Position numbers and translations under genes: made by a program | Part shown: piece by piece, positions 7,470 through 63,754 of the stretch | How the letters are laid out: every line of letters begins with the position of its first letter | How positions within the stretch are numbered: position 1 is the stretch's first letter | Assembly (NCBI GenBank): GCA_963695895.1 | Contig: CAVOIK010000011.1 | Location: 34,561 to 98,560, forward strand | Direction of reading: 5' to 3' | Source of the DNA: an uncultured delta proteobacterium | Lineage (GTDB): Bacteria > Desulfobacterota > BSN033 > UBA1163 | DNA length: 64,000 nucleotides | The notes under the pieces: model-generated | What the model was told of the DNA's origin: nothing | What the model saw: the letters and a program-made list of their open reading frames with translations, nothing else | Database searches by the model: none

Positions 7470-8534
7470 ATGGCCAGAGTGACCAAAGGACGATCGAAGA
7501 AAGCAGGGTTGCCTCCCGGAACACTGATTCACATCGGAGCCCGAAAGGTTCAGGAACCCAAAATCACGATTCTTGATTATGATGAGAACCAGTTTCACGA
7601 AAGAGAAGTAAAGGCCATCGAAGAATGTTTTATCTTTAAGGACAAGCCGACGGTCACCTGGATCAACATTGATGGACTCCATCAGACGGAAATCCTGGAA
7701 AAATTGGGAGAATGTTACGGATTGCATCCTCTGGTCTTGGAGGACATTCTCAATACAGAGCAGCGGCCCAAAATGGAAGACTACGCAGAGTATCTCTATG
7801 TGGTCGTGAAAATGCTTCATGACAAGGGCAAGAAGGGCCAGGTAGAAGCGGAGCAGGTGAGCCTCATCGTGGGGCCGAATTTTGTCTTTTCTTTTCAGGA
7901 GAGCGGAGGTGATGTCTTCGAGCCCATCCGTGAAAGGATTCGAAATGGGAAAGGTCGGGTCCGAAAAATGGGAGCTGATTATCTAATGTATAGCCTCCTC
8001 GATGCCATTGTGGATTACTATTTTGTTATCTTGGAAAAACTGGGGGAGAGGGTCGAGTTTCTGGAAGAGGAGCTCGTCACGAATCCGAAGACCCAGACTC
8101 TTCAGGAAATCCACCACCTCAAGAGCGAGATGATATTCCTTCGGAAGGCGGTTTGGCCTTTGCGAGAGGTCATCGGAGCCCTGGAAAGAGGAGAGTCTCC
8201 ACTGATTCAGAAGACGACGAGCGTGTATCTCAGGGATGTCTATGATCACACCATCCAAGCCATTGATACTGTGGAAACGTTCAGAGACATGGTTTCAGGT
8301 ATGCTGGATATTTATCTTTCGAGTGTCAGCAATCGGCTAAATGCTGTGATGAAGGTACTGACGATCATCGCCACTGTTTTCATGCCGCTGACATTCCTGG
8401 CTGGGGTTTACGGCATGAATTTCAAGTACATGCCAGAACTGGAATGGCGGTGGGGATATCCTTTGATTTGGGCAGTGATGATCGGAATCGGTGTCGTCAT
8501 GCTGATTTACTTCAAGAAAAAGAAATGGCTGTAA
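7470..8534 (+). CDS. corA: Magnesium/cobalt transporter CorA
   Basis: 354 aa with a C-terminal YGMNF motif (AGVYGMNFKYMPEL) and two transmembrane segments. Confidence 0.9.
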   Translation: MARVTKGRSKKAGLPPGTLIHIGARKVQEPKITILDYDENQFHEREVKAIEECFIFKDKPTVTWINIDGLHQTEILEKLGECYGLHPLVLEDILNTEQRPKMEDYAEYLYVVVKMLHDKGKKGQVEAEQVSLIVGPNFVFSFQESGGDVFEPIRERIRNGKGRVRKMGADYLMYSLLDAIVDYYFVILEKLGERVEFLEEELVTNPKTQTLQEIHHLKSEMIFLRKAVWPLREVIGALERGESPLIQKTTSVYLRDVYDHTIQAIDTVETFRDMVSGMLDIYLSSVSNRLNAVMKVLTIIATVFMPLTFLAGVYGMNFKYMPELEWRWGYPLIWAVMIGIGVVMLIYFKKKKWL

Positions 8535-8544
8535 AGAGAGAGGG

Positions 8545-8655
8545 TCCCAGGGTTCAAGGGTTCTAGGGTTCAAGGTCTGGCAGGAAGCGCTTTTCATGAA
8601 TCGTGGAAGTCAGTTTTGCCTCGTACGCTCTCCCTCGAAGCCTTGAAGCCTTGGG
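8545..8655. repeat. Imperfect inverted repeat made of 8-nt tandem words (gggttcaa... / ...ccttgaagcc) between convergent genes
   Basis: The arms lie at 8545-8575 and 8632-8655. It may act as a bidirectional terminator. Confidence 0.55.
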
Positions 8656-25162: not shown

Positions 25163-25292
25163 TTATTAAGTCATTGGTCATTAAGTCATTAAAACCATGA
25201 CCCACTCAAACCTCGCAATTCGGAACTGAATGACCCAATAACTCAATGACTCAATACCTAATGACCCAATGACCAATAACTCAATGACTACG
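25163..25292. repeat. Long imperfect hairpin of 7-8-nt tandem words (gtcattR / aatgacYc)
   Basis: The left arm is gtcattggtcattaagtcatt. The right arm is aatgacccaataactcaatgactcaat..., with aat recurring every 7-8 nt. It lies between glpB and glpA. Confidence 0.65.
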
Positions 25293-51633: not shown

Positions 51634-51862
51634 TCCTTCCGATCAGGGTAGGTTGTTAAAGAATACTCTGTCCAGAGGCAGATTTCAATTAAATCGGAGC
51701 CAATAAAACGATGGCTTCCAGGGTTGCGCATCCAAAAAGCTGACGGGCAGGTTGGCTTGATCCTCGTCCTTAGACGGAGAGAAATGCCGACCCAGTAATG
51801 ATACCCACATTACCCGGGAGCCCTCGCCAGAGATATGAACAGGAAAGAGAGGAGAGTTTACC

Positions 51863-52140
51863 GTGAGGAAATTGAGAAAGCTGCCAAAATTCAAGAACGA
51901 GAAGGAAGAATTTAAGTTCTGGTCAACCCATGACTCCACAGGATATGTGGATTATTCGAAGGCCAAAAGGGTGGTGTTAGCGAACCTGAAGCCTTCGACC
52001 AGGGCGATCTCCATCAGGCTACCGGAGTCCCTTATCACGCATAAAAAGTGTTGGCCAATAAGCGAGATATTCCCTATCAGTCTCTGTTGAAAATGTATTT
52101 GATAGAGAAGGTAGAAGAAGAGTTCCGCGAGGCGAGATAA
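51863..52140 (+). CDS. brnA: BrnA-like antitoxin (CopG/RHH C-terminus), indel in an A5 run near 52037
   Basis: KFKNEKEEFKFWSTHDSTGYVDYSKAKRVVLANLKPSTRAISIRLPESL, then in the other frame KVLANKRDIPYQSLLKMYLIEKVEEE. Confidence 0.65.
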
Positions 52141-55440: not shown

Positions 55441-56149
55441 ATGGGAAAAATCGTGGCAGCTGTGACATGCGACATCGTGAGATCGCAGAGATATTCAACG
55501 GAACTGAGGAAGAGAATTGACACCCTCCTGAAGAAAGAATTCGCCAAAGTGTACAAAGCCTACCCAAACGCTATTCACACGCCTACCTCTTTTAATATTA
55601 CTGTAGGTGACGAATTCCAGTTCGTCTTGTCGAAAGTTGAGAAGGCCTATGAGTTAACGATTTTCTACCGTGCGCTGGTTGCCCTCGCCGATATTACTCC
55701 GATGATCAGCTTCCGTTCGTCGATTGGGATCGGTGAGATCGCTGTCGAAAACAAGAAGGATTCCTATTCCCAGGATGGTAAGGCATTCCATCGTTCTAGA
55801 GAGGGCATCAATTTCTTCCGGAATCAGAAATATCAGAGGGAGGAGACGTACCAAAATCGTAACCGGAGACAGGGCCCTCGACGAGACCTTGGATCTCATT
55901 CTCATGTACCAGGATCTCCTGGAAGAAAAGTGGACTCGTGCGCAATGGGAGGCCATTCGCTGGCGACTGATGTTACCGACCTATGAGGAGATCGCCCGCA
56001 AGTTAGGGGTTGCTTATCAAAACGTCCAGAAACGACTGAAGGCAGCCAACTGGGATGAGTTTAGCAAGGGGATTGAATTTATTGAGAAGGTTTTGACGTC
56101 ACACCTTCAAAAGGGTGTAAGCGGCAATCTCACCCCTAAAAGGGTGTAA
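55441..56149 (+). CDS. SatD-family protein with a C-terminal HTH, indel near 55840
   Basis: AAVTCDIVRSQRY...ITVGDEFQF...SIGIGEI. In the second frame: WTRAQWEAIRWRLMLPTYEEIARKLGVAYQNVQKRL. Confidence 0.65.
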
Positions 56150-56163
56150 GGGGGATTGAGACA

Positions 56164-56886
56164 ATGATCTTTTGGAAAATTCTCCTTGCCCATGCGCTAA
56201 CCGATTTTGTCTTCCAGCCTGACTCTTTGGCCGAAAACAAAGGCAAAATAACGGTACTTTTAGTTCACACGCTTATCTTTTTTCTCCTTTCTGTTGTCAT
56301 CCTTTTGCCGAACCTTTCTTATCAGACGGTAACCGCTCTTGTATGCCTTGCACTCTTTCATGGGTTCATTGACTATCTTAAAAATCTGATCCAAAAAGGC
56401 ACTGCAAGAAGTCATTGGCTCTATTTTCTCGGGGATCAGGCACTTCATGTGTTGGGAATTGGAGTCGTCGTATTCTTTCTGGATAGGGAACGCTTTCATG
56501 CATGGATCAATCTCTTGTCGACTTATTGGTCAAAACCTTCTCTATTTCTATTTGTCTCCCTCTTTGTCGTGATTGTATTTGGAGGGGGTTTTTTTACCGG
56601 GGTCCTCTGTAGAGGGTTCCTGGGACGATTGAACTCGGAGAAGAGACCAGGGATTGAAAGGGCAGGGAGGTATATTGGAATCCTGGAAAGAAGTCTGGTT
56701 CTGACAGCTGTGCTCTTTGGCAAGATGGAATTTATCGGATATATCTTTGCGGCCAAATCGATTGCTCGTTATCCGGAGATGAAAGAAGGGACTCATTTCG
56801 CAGAATATTATTTGATCGGAACCTTAACCAGCATCTCCATCGCTTTTTTCGGAGGTCTACTCTTGAAGTATCTATTAGGATGGTAA
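56164..56886 (+). CDS. DUF3307 membrane protein (usual partner of SatD)
   Basis: LLAHALTDFVFQPD N-terminus with multiple transmembrane segments. Confidence 0.7.
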   Translation: MIFWKILLAHALTDFVFQPDSLAENKGKITVLLVHTLIFFLLSVVILLPNLSYQTVTALVCLALFHGFIDYLKNLIQKGTARSHWLYFLGDQALHVLGIGVVVFFLDRERFHAWINLLSTYWSKPSLFLFVSLFVVIVFGGGFFTGVLCRGFLGRLNSEKRPGIERAGRYIGILERSLVLTAVLFGKMEFIGYIFAAKSIARYPEMKEGTHFAEYYLIGTLTSISIAFFGGLLLKYLLGW

Positions 56887-57173
56887 TGGGCTTTTTGTTT
56901 TGGCGCCTGACGACTTACGTTTTACTCCTTGCGCCTCGCGCCTTGCGATTTCAACTTTTGGGGTTCACTCTATGTCCTATGCCTGCCCGCCGTAGGCGGG
57001 CGCTACCTGCCTGCTTGCAGGTCCGAAGCAGAGGAAACTGCGTAGGAGGATGCGCTGTGCGATTTCAGTTTTTGGGGTTCACTCTATGCCCTATGCGCTA
57101 TGCTCTTTGCGTCTTTTGCTTGTGCCCCTTGCGACTTACGACTCGCGCCTAACGGTACTTGTTGGAGGTGGCC

Positions 57174-57353
57174 ATGCCAGCAATTGCATCTCTTGAAGAC
57201 CTAAAAGCTGCGCAGAAAGATCTCTTGGAAGCGAAGGATCTGGATGAGTTGAAAGGTGCGTTCAAAAAATGCCGTCGAATCGGCTGGAAAAATGTGTGTA
57301 AGTTGTGGCTGGAAGAGCGTACACCAGAGCAATTGAAGGGTGAAAGCGGATAA
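57174..57353 (+). CDS. 59-aa repeated ORF, copy 1 (family unknown)
   Basis: MPAIASLEDLKAAQKDLLEAKDLDELKGAFKKCRRIGWKNVCKLWLEERTPEQLKGESG, with a ggaggtg RBS 4 nt upstream. Confidence 0.6.
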   Translation: MPAIASLEDLKAAQKDLLEAKDLDELKGAFKKCRRIGWKNVCKLWLEERTPEQLKGESG

Positions 57354-57508
57354 TTATTTATTGCTTTGCGGGGTAGGGTATGTGTGTTTTTTGGTTTCAA
57401 CTCCTTACTCCTTACACCTCACTCCTTACGTCTTTTGAAGGGGAGGGCGAGTAAATAGTGTAGGCCTGACACCCTAGTCACTATTCAACTAAACAGGAGG
57501 TAAGAAAT

Positions 57509-57853
57509 ATGAAGAGAGAGATTAAGGTCGAAAAACTTGATACAACTAAGGAGAAGGTTCTTTATGATAATTGTGTGATTAGCAAGAGAATTATTACTAA
57601 AGCAAGAAGTGGTTCAGAAAAGATGTCGTTTCATCATACCTTTATCAAGAAGGGTTGGGAACACCCGGTTTCATATCCTGAGATGGACGAAATTATCTAT
57701 TTCTTAGATGGCAGAGCAAAGATCTCATATGATGGGAAAGAAGTTGAAGTATCATCAGGGTTCTGCGTGTATATTCCTGCAGGTTGTGAATACAACTACC
57801 GGGCTCTTGACGATGCAACGATGGTTTGCGTTTTTTCACCGCCGGCAGAGTAA
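57509..57853 (+). CDS. Cupin domain protein
   Basis: 114 aa. The HHTF...EIIYFLDGRAKISYDGKEVEVSSGFCVYIPAGCEYNY pattern is cupin-like, and an aggagg RBS is present. Confidence 0.7.
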   Translation: MKREIKVEKLDTTKEKVLYDNCVISKRIITKARSGSEKMSFHHTFIKKGWEHPVSYPEMDEIIYFLDGRAKISYDGKEVEVSSGFCVYIPAGCEYNYRALDDATMVCVFSPPAE

Positions 57854-57980
57854 AGAAAAGAAGCAATGGGGGTCGGCTCTTGGGAAGGGACACATGGGGT
57901 AGGAGGATGCTCTTTGCGTTTTTTGCTTGCGCCCCTTGCGACTTACGACTCGCGCCTAACGGTACTTGTTGGAGGTGGCC

Positions 57981-58160
57981 ATGCCAGCAATTGCATCTCT
58001 TGAAGACCTAAAGACAGCACAGAAAGATCTCTTGGAAGCGAAGGATCTGGATGAGTTGAAGGGTGCGTTCAAGAAATGGCGTCGAATCGGCTGGAAAAAT
58101 GTGTGTAAATTGTGGCTCCAAGAGCGTACCCCAGAACAATTGAAGGGGGAAGGAGGGTAA
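57981..58160 (+). CDS. 59-aa repeated ORF, copy 2
   Basis: It differs from copy 1 at 4 of 59 residues and has an identical RBS and leader. Confidence 0.6.
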   Translation: MPAIASLEDLKTAQKDLLEAKDLDELKGAFKKWRRIGWKNVCKLWLQERTPEQLKGEGG

Positions 58161-58260
58161 AGTGGGCACGTTGGTCGCAATGATCCTAATTCACGGTTCA
58201 GGCCCCGACCCCCTTGCGTCCTTCAAGTTATAATTTCATGAACGTCCCAGAGGCCTACTA

Positions 58261-58296
58261 TTGACAAAGGAAACAATTTAGTTATAAATTGTTTCC
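58261..58296 (+). promoter_or_regulatory. Promoter overlapped by a perfect 11-bp inverted repeat, upstream of the ATPase gene
   Basis: TTGACA, 16 nt, then TATAAA. The inverted repeat is ggaaacaattt (58269-58279) and aaattgtttcc (58286-58296). Confidence 0.55.
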
Positions 58297-58309
58297 TGAG
58301 GTAAACACC

Positions 58310-59614
58310 ATGCCCGTCGATCCGTTGCTTCAGATCGTTGCAGAGTGGATCGAAGAAGTAACGCTTCCAAAACTGATCCCACGAAGCATCGCTCCCATCA
58401 ACCTTGAGCGACTCCGGGACATCCTTGCCATCGTGGGACCACGACGAGCGGGTAAGACGTTTCTCATGTATCAACTCATGGGGTCGCTGCTCCAAACGCA
58501 TCGGTGGACGAAACAGGATATCCTCTTTGTTGACTTCGAAGATTACCGATTGAAGGGGTTCCGGACGGAGGACGTGGAACCGCTCTTTGTCGCTTTTAAT
58601 CAGCTCGCAGGACGATATCCGACCTTTCTCTTCTTTGATGAAGTCCAGTATCTCCCAGATTGGAACCGGGTGCTCCGCACGCTCCACAATCGAGGGAGAT
58701 TTCATATTGTCATCTCCGGCAGCAACTCCAAACTTCTTAAGGGCGAAGTGGCAACGGAACTCCGGGGGCGTTATACGGATGTCCTCCTCCTGCCGTTCTC
58801 TTTTCGAGAATTTCTCGCTTTCCGGCGGGTCACCTACACCCCGGCCCTTCTTCACACAGCGGCCCGAGGTCGCATCCTGCGAGCGTTTGACGACTACTTG
58901 AAAGAAGGAGGGTTTCCGGAGGTGTTGATCCGTGAAGCAACGACGGAAAAAAGGAAGCTTCTCCAGACGTACTATAACACGATCTTCTACCGCGATATTC
59001 TGGAACGGTTTAACATCAAGGCAAAAACCATCCTCGACGGGATGATGACCTACGTCGTGAATACACCCTCAGAACTGTTTTCCATTTCTGCCTTCGAAAA
59101 ACAGCTCCGGTCGAAACAGATCCCCGGAAGCAAGCGAACCATTGCCAATTATCTTCGCTACCTGCAGGAGGCTTTCTTCGTGATCGCGAACGAGAAGTTC
59201 TCCTATTCCCCGCGGCATCGCCTGATGAATCCCAAAAAAGTCTATCTGACGGACACGGGATTTCTGATGTTAGCCACCCCATTCTCGGAAAACCGGGGCA
59301 AAGTGCTGGAAAATCTCGTCGCCATTGAGTTTTTCAGGCGAGAGCAGGAGATGTTTTACTTCAAGGGTAGACACGAATGTGATTTCATCGTCAAAGAGGG
59401 GACTCAACCTCGGGAAGCAATCCAGGTCTGCTGGGAGCTTCAGCCGCAGAACGAGAAGCGGGAGCTCCAGGGATTGTTGGAGGCCATGATCACCCTGAAA
59501 CTACGAAAGGGCAGGGTTTTGACCTACGCCCAGGAAGAGACGAGAAAGATCGAAGGCCGAACGGTCTCCGTCTCCCCAGTATGGAAATGGTTGTTAAACA
59601 GTGAGGTCCAGTGA
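58310..59614 (+). CDS. AAA-type ATPase with a DUF4143 C-terminal domain
   Basis: Walker A GPRRAGKT and Walker B FLFFDEVQ. The C-terminal DUF4143-like region is typical of this family. Confidence 0.75.
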   Translation: MPVDPLLQIVAEWIEEVTLPKLIPRSIAPINLERLRDILAIVGPRRAGKTFLMYQLMGSLLQTHRWTKQDILFVDFEDYRLKGFRTEDVEPLFVAFNQLAGRYPTFLFFDEVQYLPDWNRVLRTLHNRGRFHIVISGSNSKLLKGEVATELRGRYTDVLLLPFSFREFLAFRRVTYTPALLHTAARGRILRAFDDYLKEGGFPEVLIREATTEKRKLLQTYYNTIFYRDILERFNIKAKTILDGMMTYVVNTPSELFSISAFEKQLRSKQIPGSKRTIANYLRYLQEAFFVIANEKFSYSPRHRLMNPKKVYLTDTGFLMLATPFSENRGKVLENLVAIEFFRREQEMFYFKGRHECDFIVKEGTQPREAIQVCWELQPQNEKRELQGLLEAMITLKLRKGRVLTYAQEETRKIEGRTVSVSPVWKWLLNSEVQ

Positions 59615-59827
59615 CAAGGCCAAGTAGGCATTGTGCCTGCCTGCCGGTAGGCAGGCGCTATGCCTGCTTGCAGGTCCGAAGCAGAGCAGGCTGCGTAGGA
59701 GGATGCGCTGTGCGACTTTCAATTTTTGGGGTTCACTCTATGCCCTATGCGCTATGCTCTTTGCGTTTTTTGCTTGCACCCCTTACTCCTTGCGCCTCGC
59801 GCCTAACGGTATCTCTTGGAGGTGCTT

Positions 59828-60007
59828 ATGCCAGCAATTGCATCTCTTGAAGACCTAAAATCTGCGCAGAAAGATCTTCTGGAAGCGAAGGATCTGGATG
59901 AGTTGAAGGGAGTGTTCAAGAAGTGGCGAAGAATTGGATGGAAAAATGTGTGCAAGCTGTGGCTGGAAGAGAGAACCCCGGAACAATTGAAAGGTGAAGG
60001 CGAATAA
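59828..60007 (+). CDS. 59-aa repeated ORF, copy 3
   Basis: MPAIASLEDLKSAQKDLLEAKDLDELKGVFKKWRRIGWKNVCKLWLEERTPEQLKGEGE. Confidence 0.6.
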   Translation: MPAIASLEDLKSAQKDLLEAKDLDELKGVFKKWRRIGWKNVCKLWLEERTPEQLKGEGE

Positions 60008-60227
60008 ACCTCATTTTGGTGAGTTAGAGATGCCGTGTACGTTCTTAGTTTTGTCCCCTTGCGACTTACGACTCGCGACTTGCAGCTTTTTTATACCCCT
60101 TACTCCTTTCGCCTTGCACCTTACGGTATTTTATGGTCACCAGAGCAGTTGAAGGGGGAGGGCGAGTGAATAGTGTAGACCTGACACACCAAAACGACAA
60201 AACATATACAATCTCTTACATGGAGCC

Positions 60228-60794
60228 ATGAGAATGGGCAAAGACGTGGAATTGGTTTCTCCAGAGCACATCGAACAATCGATCCTGTTGATTCGTCACC
60301 AAAAAGTGATGCTTGACTCTAACTTGGCGGAACTTTACGGAGTGAGCACGAAAAGGTTAAATGAGCAGGTTAAACGAAATCGTGCACGTTTTCCGGGGGA
60401 TTTTATGTTTCAATTGACAGTATCAGAGACCGACATTTTGAGGTCGCAATTTGCGACCTCAAAAAAGGGAGGCGGGGGGCGTCGGTACCTTCCATATGCT
60501 TTCACAGAGCAAGGGGTAGCCATGCTATCCAGCGTGCTCAACAGTGAAAGAGCAATTCAGGTTAACATCGAGATCATGCGTGCTTTTGTCCGATTGCGGC
60601 GAATTCTCGCCTCTCATGCTGCTTTGGCTCGAAAGCTTGACGCTCTCGAAAAGAAATATGATGCCCAGTTCAAGGTTGTCTTTGATGCCATACGTGAATT
60701 GATGAAACCCCCTGAATCCAAAAAGCGCCCAATCGGGTTTCTTGTTGAGGAGCCTAAGGTTCCTTATCTCACAAGAAGGAAAAGGAAAAGTTAG
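60228..60794 (+). CDS. ORF6N domain DNA-binding protein
   Basis: [43 protein letters not shown]...[19 protein letters not shown] is typical of ORF6N. Confidence 0.75.
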
Positions 60795-60986
60795 GTGTTG
60801 GGGAAGAGGTTCAGATGTGGCAATTCATGATATGTGTTTTGCGTCGCCCTTGCGACTTACGACTCGCAACTTGCGACTTTCAGTTTTTTGGGGGGTTACC
60901 CTATGCTCTATGCGCCATGCGCTATGCTTTTCTTGTGCCCCTAACTCCTTGCACCTCACGCCTAACGGTATCTTTTGGAGGTGCTT

Positions 60987-61160
60987 ATGCCAGCAATTGC
61001 ATCTCTTGAAGACTTAAAAGCTGCCCAAAAGCCTTTACGCGTGATGCTCTCTGCGCTATGCTCTATGCTTTAGGAAAATGGCGGCGTATGGCTGGGAAAA
61101 TGTGTGTAAGTTATGGCTGGAAGAGAGAACCCCGGAACAATTGAAAGGTGAAGGCGAATA
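60987..61160 (+). pseudogene. 59-aa repeated ORF, copy 4, with its central part replaced by heptamer repeats
   Basis: The 5' 45 nt and 3' ~85 nt match copies 1-3. Positions 61032-61074 read cctttacgcgtgatgctctctgcgctatgctctatgctttagg instead of the coding sequence. Confidence 0.75.
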
Positions 61161-61447
61161 AACGTGATTTTGGTGAGTTAGAGGTGCTGTGTGCGGTCTT
61201 ACTTTCGATCCCTCGCTCCTTGCGCCTCACTCCTTACTGAGTTGAGAGGAGTGGGTGTCTGGATCGAAAAACTGAAAGAAATGAGCAACGTCCCAACCCA
61301 ACGCACTGCAAACCCAGCGCAAAATTGGCTATTCTGATTATCCCGGACAGTGATTCCGATTTGATGCCGGACGCCTGTTCCGAAGGATGGCGGACACCCT
61401 GGTCGGAGCGAAGCGACGCTGGGGTTTTAGGATATCTTACCGATGAA

Positions 61448-62205: not shown

Positions 62206-63754
62206 TCACTGATAGTATTGTCTTCCTCTGAGGTTTGAATGTTCAAGCAGAGGCGGAGGGGTTTGAGAAGAAGCGACGGTAAGGGGCTGCCGATCCAATC
62301 CATTTTTGAGGATGGACTCCACGTTCTTATAGGAATAGGCTTTCATTCTGAGCGCTCTGGCGCAGGCAGATTCGAGACGCTCGGGAGTGTAACGTTTTCC
62401 TAACCGAAGCAGGCCCAGACACGAGCGGTACCCCTGCTCCGGGTGAGGACGGTTCTCCAGGATGCAGGCGACCAGTTTCTGAGTGGAAGGGCCGATCTTC
62501 GCTGCCCATCCGATGAGCCGAGAAGGAGTCCATTCGAGATATTTCTGATGGGACTTGGGCATGTGCTCGGAGACGGTGGTGGGTTTCCCGGGGCGATAGC
62601 TCCGGAGATGGGAGGCGACTCTTCGGCCCTTGAAGAAGATCTCGACGGTGGTCTCGGTGAATCGCACCTCCACCTTCTGGTGAATCAGCTGATAGGGAAC
62701 GCTGTAGTAATGGCGATCCACCTCGATATGGTAATCGATATTGACCTTGGCGCTTTTCCATTCGGCAAAGACGAACCGTTGAGAGGGGAGAGGCTTCAAG
62801 GCGGGTTTTTCCAGAGTCTCGAAGAGGATCTTGCGAGAGGTAGGGAGTTTCTCAAAGGGGCGATGGTTTAAGATCTCCAGTTGGACCCGGAGGGCTTGAT
62901 TGAGTTCCGTGAGACTGAAGAAGGTTCGGTGTCTTAGGGGAGCCAGACCCCAGCGTTCAATCTGCAGGACCGCGGACTCTCCCTTGGCCTTATCCCGGGG
63001 CTTACCGACACGAGCAGGAATGATGACGGTGCCGTAGTGCTCAGCCATTTCCCGGTAGGTGGCATTGAGGTCGGGTTCATAGCGGCAGGAGCGGGTGACA
63101 GCCGAGCGGAGGTTATCGGGGACCAGGATCTCGGCAACACCACCAAAGAATTCAAAGGCATGGATATGGGACTCGATCCAGGAAGGAAGCTCTTGGGAGA
63201 GGGAGGCTTCGGCAAAGGTGTAGTTACTGGCCCCTAGGGTGGCCACAAAGATCTGGGCTTCGGTGATGAGTCCCGTTACGGGATCAACGATCGGCATGGT
63301 CTGGCCGGCATAGTCGACGAAGAGCTTTTCTCCGGCTCGGTACTCTTGGCGAAGACAGGGGTCGAGCTTCTCAGCCCATTGGTGGTAGAGGCGACAGAAC
63401 TGACTATACTGGTACCCGTCGGGAGTTCCCTTGCTTGTACTCATCCCATAGGAGCTGAAGCGTCACCCCCTTCTTCTTGAGTTCCTGGTTCAGGTACTCC
63501 ATGGGAGGCATTTGGCGCTTCTCTGAGGGGATAGGGACCCTGGTAGGAAAGAGACGATGCTCCAGGGAGGCTTCATCCAGATCAGGAGGAAGGGGCCAGC
63601 CAAATCCGGCCTTCTGAGCACGATCCAGATAGTCATGAACCGTGCTTCGACCGATCCCCAGGCTTTGAGCGATTTCTCGGGTGGAGAGATTCTTTTCGTG
63701 GTAGAGACGCAGTACTTCTTTAACCTTACGCATGGATAATCTCCTTGTGGCCAT
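62206..63754 (-). CDS. istA: IS21 transposase IstA, indel near 63425
   Basis: The N-terminal HTH (STREIAQSLGIGRSTVHDYL) lies in ORF 63404..63754. The DDE core (VDYAGQT...) lies in ORF 62206..63444. Confidence 0.88.

Follow-up and report, generated by a model that had tools for sequence, protein, structure and literature searches.

In the 64,000-nucleotide (nt) stretch of DNA analysed here, referred to as the window (C11:34561-98560 of a metagenome-assembled genome of 2.8 Mb, 38 contigs and 51% G+C), a conserved small gene for a protein of 59 amino acids (aa), termed ORF59 (ORF, open reading frame), is found in four copies, each preceded by a leader that features tandem heptamer repeats. Leader and gene together form a head, and the variants of this head, including two 3' relics of the gene, are probably a mixture that arose as repeat-rich tandem heads were rearranged recurrently, without the need for a dedicated recombinase. 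This reading is carried by the anatomy of the variants, their recurrence in other genomes, the enrichment of heptamer tracts at breakpoints and the differences from sister contigs, all of which are directly observed. A preliminary description of the window had interpreted the two relics, a shortened leader in copy 2 and a heptamer replacement in copy 4 as a local decay series, in which heptamer tracts actively remodel the modules. All four observations are present in the sequence, within 2-6 nt of the positions given at the time, and the relics are truly 5'-truncated; however, three of the four variants belong to forms recurring in other genomes, and the set as a whole does not represent four local injuries.

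All genes between about 52200 and 61300 of the window lie on the + strand, and the gaps between them are composed of a few short sequence elements, namely heptamers of the CTATGCN and CCTTRCG types, a hairpin element terminating in GTAGGAGGATGC, and a block designated B (TTTCAGTTTTTGGGGTTCACT). The tracts consist of at least three head-to-tail degenerate 7-nt units, such as CTATGCC CTATGCG CTATGCT CTTTGCG or CCTTGCG ACTTACG ACTCGCG CCTAACG. Module copies and relics match over tens of nt at 85-100% identity, which excludes chance. In the following, C11, C21 and C25 are contigs of the window's genome and L-numbers denote related contigs or loci from other assemblies, among which L091 was reached by protein look-up and L098-L110 by a scan for the short leader junction described below. 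No syntenic relative was found among the genomes of the species set, and exact look-ups of the cupin and ORF6N proteins of the array gave no match. In the proposed mechanism, the module would be the head of an operon-like cassette, a repeat-rich leader plus the conserved 59-aa gene, that sits directly 5' of changing defence or mobile-element genes within same-strand arrays, in Thermodesulfobacteriota-like bacteria as well as other phyla.

The leaders of copies 1 and 2 differ by exactly 50 nt, present in copy 1 at 57050-57099 (equivalently 57054-57103) and flanked by ATGC at both edges, much as the preliminary description had stated; the corresponding segment of copy 3 is 51 nt long. In copy 1, the segment comprises a second block B and three CTATGCN units, and each of its edges cuts a heptamer-like unit at the same point (GGATGC-G and CTATGC-T, hyphens marking the edges), so that it is in heptamer register. 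Exchange in the repeat register is thus the natural mechanism in either direction, and slippage or unequal exchange between in-register heptamer units would yield an indel of this size. The contig L110 is syntenic with window 55753-57274 (SatD, DUF3307, the junction and copy 1) at 91.7% identity over 1.5 kb, and the only sizeable difference between the two is that exactly 57050-57099 is absent in L110. The 50-nt difference is therefore an exact presence/absence polymorphism, and this comparison with a sister contig, which had been proposed earlier, reveals a recent change at a tract-bearing leader. The short junction, in which GTAGGAGGATGC is joined directly to TCTTTGCG, occurs in 13 metagenome contigs, and in L099 and L110 it lies within an ORF59 leader with the same layout as in copy 2. 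Because the short leader is the common form in other assemblies, the polarity is left as either gain or loss, and the leader of copy 2 is not evidence of damage. What copy 2 does lack is all of the leader 5' of the final 12 hairpin-element nt, where the unrelated 3' flank of the cupin gene is found instead. Between copies 1 and 3, the extra segment varies at only two sites, by a substitution and an additional C, while the next 100 nt of these two copies are only 86% identical, a pattern that hints at a transfer between them.

A second signature of exchange may be seen in copies 1 and 2. The stretches 57104-57203 and 57911-58010 are identical at 98/100 positions, compared to 89% in the remaining ORF, and this patch runs from TCTTTGCG across the CCTTRCG tract and Shine-Dalgarno sequence into the initial 30 nt of ORF59. 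Within the patch, L110 differs from copy 1 at 12/47 positions and resembles copy 3, while 5' of the patch the L110 junction is nearly identical to copy 1, with few mismatches in about 200 nt of alignment inspected by eye. The patch is likely a gene-conversion signature, and conversion between paralogous heads would produce it.

Each of the two relics is homologous to part of an intact paralogue but has lost its start codon and most of the reading frame, as expected of 5'-truncated pseudogenes; both matches extend to about ORF nt 178. They had initially been placed at about 57437-57480 and 60137-60192, each joined directly to a heptamer block (corrected positions are given in Table 1); this arrangement holds for relic 1, whereas an 11-nt linker separates relic 2 from its block. 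The relics share 33 nt at 94% identity (repeat family D12), including the flank ATAGTGTAGRCCTGACAC, which none of the four window copies carries 3' of its stop codon. Direct comparison with the C21, C25, L009 and L091 sequences showed that this flank, termed P-type, follows full-length ORF59 on C21 and in L091, and hence the relics derive from a second head subtype. The composite layout also recurs at C25:61433-61745 and in L009, where an intact head is followed by a short spacer, a CCTTRCG tract, a linker, a P-type relic and a cargo gene. Head plus relic is thus a conserved composite as opposed to a product of local decay, and judging from these alignments the two variants are genuinely truncated heads within a layout older than this genome. 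In L091, the in-frame gene described below is followed at 8206-8400 by a single tandem repeat of its last heptamer, the ORF 3' half and the flank, which is another relic-making event in a close relative.

In addition, 84 related loci were profiled with nhmmer. In these loci, 5' fragments often terminate at ORF nt 44-48, while the starts of 3' fragments cluster at nt 85-95, 120-125 and 139-149. The allele described below as variant H accounts for the nt 85-95 cluster and most of the 5' ends at nt 44-48, and five fragments with a start at nt 125 are due to an 88-111-nt insertion. A period-7 tract lies at most 30 nt upstream of 20/35 3' fragments, as compared to 3.2% of random positions and 15/57 intact start codons, and controls with periods of 6, 8 and 9 gave 0/35. 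Tracts were called here at 10/14 matches, as 12/14 was too strict for degenerate units. The nt between tract and relic match ordinary leader linkers, e.g., GGTTATAG or GGTATCTTTGG, which places the left breakpoints in the Shine-Dalgarno linker just 3' of the tract and not within the tract. The earlier proposal that breakpoints coincide with heptamer tracts is therefore borne out by the in-register indel and by the fragments adjacent to tracts, but not by the left ends of the relics. ORF nt 136-144 (CTGGAGGAA) are similar to TTGGAGG, the purine-rich Shine-Dalgarno sequence, and the cluster at nt 139-149 may thus be explicable as short-homology deletion. Relics would result if such a deletion spanned from the Shine-Dalgarno linker that follows a tract into the 3' portion of the next ORF.

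The position of the relic ends also allows for a different explanation, which we regard as unlikely, in which the ORF59 3' end (about CTCCAGAACAATTGAAAGG...) and its flank form an attachment-like or homology-anchor boundary for cargo swaps. The relics would then be displaced former ends and the heptamer tracts putative accessory binding sites at cassette ends, comparable to polymorphic toxin loci with their orphan C-terminal modules, or to elements that integrate at a target gene's 3' end. Consistent with cassette exchange of this kind, relic starts cluster at nt 139-149 with five or more different sequences to their left, both TTGAAR and the flank of the respective type are retained in all relics, and the similarity between the copy 1 and C25 composites stops right after CCTGACACCC, where different cargo genes start. 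In addition, a given cargo family may or may not be accompanied by a head in other arrays, and the arrays are long and confined to one strand, as in integron cassette arrays. On the other hand, relic starts are spread continuously between nt 30 and 161 with no single fixed point (about nt 148 in relic 2, 155 in L009, 160 in C25 and 161 in relic 1), and the relic linkers are ordinary leader linkers, as deletion would leave. No recombinase gene lies beside any array examined: ten matches to tyrosine recombinase (PF00589) occur in the genome and none of them on C11, C21 or C25, a test limited by the end of C11, and no tyrosine recombinase is present in four 20-kb arrays from other samples (L092, L095-L097). 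The heptamer tracts are direct repeats and not attC-like imperfect palindromes. When inspected by eye, the junctions contain direct repeats and short hairpins, and GCCTAAC occurs at the wrong end, beside the following gene; an integron cassette array was rejected as the family since no integrase is nearby and the junctions are not palindromic. The sequence CCTGACAC was considered as an attachment core and dropped, as the degenerate motif RRYCYGAYAC is not enriched (92 occurrences in the genome vs. about 171 expected).

Alternatively, the last 20-45 nt of ORF59 and the flank may have been retained as a signal for the downstream cargo gene, such as a promoter -35 element (TTGAAA/TTGAAG), translation coupling or an RNA element, with deletions removing only the sequence upstream. 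Relic 1 and the relic on C25, which are the shortest, begin exactly at TTGAAG, both P-type and R-type flanks are conserved across genomes, and in some genomes the cargo gene follows ORF59 by no more than about 20 nt, a spacing that suggests co-expression. Yet a consensus scan found no sigma-70-like promoter at either relic, and none in any ORF59 leader; the candidate -10 element TAGTGT is poor, its spacing varies from 15 to 17 nt, and the ATPase cargo gene has a good predicted promoter of its own at 58261-58290. Rfam searches of the window array and four related loci gave no match. Selection for such an element is accordingly held to be quite improbable as the origin of the relics. As a separate observation, the P-type flank (GTRAATAGTGTAGRCCTGACACCC; window 57451-57487 and C21:9470-9505) can in some copies pair with an inverted repeat just downstream (AATAGTG...CACTATT).

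A heptamer tract is also found within the coding sequence. In copy 4, 47 coding nt (ORF nt 47-93) are exchanged for 43 nt, CCTTTACG plus CTATGCN-type units, as had been described, and the frame is broken. L091, a close relative whose genes in common with the window are 92-98% identical, carries the same arrangement in frame at L091:8032-8205, encoding 57 aa (variant H), and its junctions are the same as those of copy 4: ...CAGAAG followed by CCTTTACGC..., and ...CTATGCTTCAGG followed by GACATGGCG.... Compared to this copy, copy 4 has gained 2 nt near 61041-61044 and lost 1 nt near 61089, and therefore small indels, not heptamers, break its frame. A search with the L091 variant-H protein identified 25 or more protein clusters with identical junctions, which fall into two sub-types (...AAQKPLRYALCALLYALGRWRRIGW... 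and ...AAQKEGVSIYAMLYAL...RKWRRIGW...), and one identical in-frame variant-H protein (P0157, from L047) is found on at least 24 contigs from different samples, within 20-kb same-strand arrays. With respect to a possible phase-variable contingency locus, the variant-H tract ranges from 3 to 5 units among DNA copies, its units are non-identical, and both in-frame and out-of-frame forms occur. In L049 and L083 the hairpin element is placed between two variant-H units, as in leaders. Rather than a product of damage by heptamer insertion, copy 4 thus appears from its sequence to be a pseudogenised member of an old, widely and horizontally spread allele in which the heptamer tract encodes codons 16-31. 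The variation in unit number, together with the L110 leader, supports the part of the original interpretation in which tracts remodel modules.

Table 1. Features of the ORF59 heads, their relics and associated elements.
Feature	Position	Strand	Composition or remarks
Leader, copy 1	56938..57173	+	block B (TTTCAACTTTTGGGGTTCACT); CTATGYC units; two hairpins (56982-57040); conserved word GTAGGAGGATGC (57042-57053); 50-nt extra segment (57054-57103); TCTTTGCG; CCTTRCG tract (57127-57154); Shine-Dalgarno sequence
ORF59 copy 1	57174..57353	+	intact, 59 aa
Heptamer block 5' of relic 1	57400..57430	+	CCTTACN type: CTCCTTA CTCCTTA CACCTCA CTCCTTACG
Relic 1	57431..57474	+	tcttttgaaggggagggcgagtaaatagtgtaggcctgacaccc; directly after block 57400-57430; linker TCTTT; ~6 last ORF59 codons (TTGAAGGGGAGGGCGAGTAA, one G lost); P-type 3' flank ATAGTGTAGGCCTGACACCC
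Cupin gene	57509-57853		3' of relic 1
Leader, copy 2 (short form)	57899..57980	+	GTAGGAGGATGC (57899-57910) joined directly to TCTTTGCG (57911); CCTTRCG tract; Shine-Dalgarno sequence
ORF59 copy 2	57981..58160	+	intact
Leader, copy 3 (long form)	59634..59827	+	hairpins; GTAGGAGGATGC (59695-59706); 51-nt extra segment (59707-59757); TCTTTGCG; CCTTRCG tract; Shine-Dalgarno sequence
ORF59 copy 3	59828..60007	+	intact
Region 5' of relic 2	60056..60134	+	two CCTTRCG-type blocks (60056-60084, 60097-60124)
Linker before relic 2			11 nt, leader-type, GTATTTTATGG
Relic 2	60135..60190	+	~11 last ORF59 codons (CACCAGAGCAGTTGAAGGGGGAGGGCGAGTGA); P-type flank ATAGTGTAGACCTGACACACC
ORF6N gene	60228-60794		3' of relic 2
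Leader, copy 4	60847..60986	+	CTTGCGA-type tract; block B; four CTATGCN units; CCTAACT-type tract; Shine-Dalgarno sequence; no hairpin element
ORF59 copy 4	60987..61163	+	ORF nt 1-46; 43 nt of heptamers (61032-61074); ORF nt about 92-178
Codon-42/43 insertion	C21:9549-9636	-	
Codon-42/43 insertion	L049:1997; L049:3127		
Codon-42/43 insertion	L071:3629		
Codon-42/43 insertion	L083:3043		
Octamer array examples	C7:32623-32781; C34:49384-51025; C29:33901-34030		
Octamer array examples, window	8541-8575; 25225-25289		
BrnA-like gene end, window	51840-52140		
BrnA-like gene end, C21	C21:10000-10160	-	

Given that the region consists of near-identical repeats, a collapsed or chimeric assembly, or long-read indel errors, could in principle imitate such variants. 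Contig C11 stops 108 nt past the window at an insertion sequence of the IS21 type, and the repeat-rich array lies beside this contig end. The istA gene of the IS21 element is split into two overlapping frames (62206-63444 and 63404-63754, overlapping at 63404-63444), by either a real frameshift or an assembly indel, which bears on the trust placed in single-base indels of this contig, and the frame-breaking changes of copy 4 and relic 1 are of 1-2 nt. The copies, however, are 7-16% different and thus separable in assembly, and the 50-nt segments of copies 1 and 3 differ at two sites, which no simple mis-join would produce. Moreover, every structural variant recurs in assemblies made independently: L091 and L047 carry variant H, 13 contigs have the short leader, and L009 and C25 share the composite head. 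An artefact is therefore a very improbable source of the variants as a whole.

Several points nevertheless weigh against recurrent, recombinase-independent rearrangement as a complete account. Variant-H DNA copies are in frame in about 4/11 cases, which equals the chance expectation, and for this reason nothing is deduced about variant-H function or selection. The single-base indels in relic 1 and copy 4 could be assembly errors. A recombinase may lie further 3', since C11 terminates so close to the end of the window. The right-hand ends of the relics cluster at nt 120-125 and 139-149 beside several left contexts, a pattern not readily expected from random deletion and one that would also fit a defined cassette end or a retained element under selection. 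Finally, it is from position alone that ORF59 is taken to be a cassette head. Slippage, conversion and microhomology deletion, acting in the absence of a dedicated recombinase, are what we infer from the footprints described above.

ORF59 itself is a real gene. Among five intact copies (the three window copies, C25:61433-61609 and L091), differences at codon positions 3/1/2 number 160/53/20, and 146 codon changes are synonymous vs. 54 non-synonymous; this third-position bias indicates purifying selection. About 1,345 clusters of homologues were found at E<=0.001 in a large protein collection, all of them hypothetical and mostly on short contigs. Relatives with 75-95% identity occur in genomes labelled as several phyla, and a distant branch of 42-50% identity is found in Spirochaetota and Planctomycetota. 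Two segments are nearly invariant, MPAIASLE[DE]L at the N-terminus and TPExLK in the C-terminal part. An AlphaFold model displays a small, confident helical fold of four short helices with a predicted local distance difference test (pLDDT) score of 82. No match to a known family was obtained in Pfam, PHROGs, NCBIfam or PADLOC, and comparison with the PDB gave no significant match either by sequence profile (E>=0.014) or by Foldseek (E>=2.4). In other loci, the genes 3' of ORF59 are overwhelmingly defence or mobile-element genes, and the cargo families include MNT/HEPN, NOV_C, DUF499, AAA_14/DUF4143, HsdR/HsdM, type IIG restriction-modification, RadC, ORF6N, helicases and cupin. In the window, the + strand gene order is MNT/HEPN, DUF2130, SatD/DUF3307, cupin, AAA_14/DUF4143 ATPase and ORF6N, followed by the IS21 element and the contig end. 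As a very abundant conserved small gene placed before restriction, toxin-antitoxin and defence genes, ORF59 merits testing for a role in organising or regulating defence islands.

Another change to the gene was also observed. A GC-rich, strongly folding insertion of 88-111 nt lies exactly between ORF59 codons 42 and 43 (between AATGTGTGT and AAGCTGTGG) in five copies from four genomes (Table 1). It is single-copy in the window's genome and has no Rfam match, and the protein P0204 contains a longer version that is translated through in frame.

The module tracts belong to a general class of intergenic degenerate heptamer and octamer tandem arrays. Genome-wide, 47 arrays of period 7 and 71 of period 8 were counted, compared to 0-16 for periods 5, 6 and 9-12 and 31 for period 4. 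The period-7/8 arrays of the genome form several unrelated families, many of which occur as inverted pairs. Octamer arrays (TGGAGTAN, AGGGTTCN, AATGACCN) are numerous, often as inverted pairs 40-100 nt apart, and these families are separate from the module heptamers. In Geobacter metallireducens, multicopy tandem hepta- and octanucleotide sites have been described, comprising unrelated families of 3-5 units, e.g., GTTGCTYN x4 and MTYCTGA x5 (Aklujkar et al. 2009, PMC2700814). These sites are mostly intergenic but sometimes lie within genes, insertion sequences can adjoin them, and they are paired on opposite strands as putative binding sites of a global regulator (IHF/HU) (PMC2700814). The module tracts resemble them in their delta-proteobacterial host and in having several families of 3-5 degenerate 7-8-nt units. 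In contrast, the module tracts are direct only and all on one strand, with no opposite-strand pairing of the kind seen in Geobacter classes 1-3, and their two flavours stand in a fixed order before the Shine-Dalgarno sequence. Nor were the Geobacter sites connected with a small conserved gene or with gene copies that had been rearranged, as the module tracts are. In marine Beggiatoaceae, TAACTGA heptamer direct repeats have been discussed as possible translational regulators and rearrangement agents (MacGregor 2015, PMC4679880). Like these and the cyanobacterial short tandemly repeated repetitive (STRR) sequences or long simple sequence repeats, the module tracts are intergenic 5'-region heptamers, found in distant phyla, at which contigs often break. 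TAACTGA and STRR arrays, however, contain one fixed unit in many exact copies, while the module tracts have degenerate units, only 3-5 per tract, are combined with a hairpin element and block B, and are coding in one allele.

Similarities to cassette systems can be drawn as well. As in sedentary chromosomal integrons, the arrays are long, confined to one strand and made of small, mostly toxin-antitoxin or defence-type genes with repeated junction elements. They differ from integrons in that no integrase is nearby, direct heptamer tracts and hairpins take the place of attC imperfect palindromes (RYYYAAC/GTTRRRY), and a whole conserved gene is present at many module junctions. Orphan CdiA-CT/Rhs-CT modules and Neisseria pilS/maf cassettes, the latter with mosaic intergenic repeats, are orphan or silent 3' cassettes located 3' of an expressed gene; a conserved end of the upstream gene is kept before each variable module, and what varies is the C-terminal portion of that same protein plus an immunity gene. 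The ORF59 arrays share with these systems the arrangement of modules on one strand, and by analogy recombination at the conserved piece would reshuffle the downstream part; unlike in those systems, the conserved ORF59 is present in full and a separate, unrelated gene makes up the variable part.

It is conceivable, although rather doubtful, that the ORF59 head, its 3' end with flank and the heptamer/hairpin leader constitute an undescribed integrase-free cassette-shuffling system that builds and rearranges same-strand defence islands in several phyla, with the relics as footprints of cargo exchange and with a tract that can enter the coding sequence, is length-variable and possibly switchable. 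What is new, irrespective of this proposal, is the tight tie of the tracts to a conserved head gene, the documented rearrangement footprints and the tract within a coding sequence. Degenerate heptamer arrays are common in many bacteria, and this locus is a rare instance in which their effects are directly readable: an in-register indel that is polymorphic against a syntenic relative, a conversion patch in a tract-bearing leader, truncated copies beside tracts and a spread allele in which the tract is coding.

Two further observations concern the array and its genes. An insertion of about 115 nt is present within the coding sequence of an ORF6N homologue at L108:4260-4385 (- strand); this homologue is 93% identical to window 60311-60878 and is not preceded by an ORF59 head or relic. 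Lastly, a near-identical end of a BrnA-like antitoxin gene (...IPYQSLLKMYLIEKVEEEFREAR) is located directly 5' of the window array, at its start, and again directly 5' of the C21 ORF59, which suggests either a shared array entry point or a duplicated segment.

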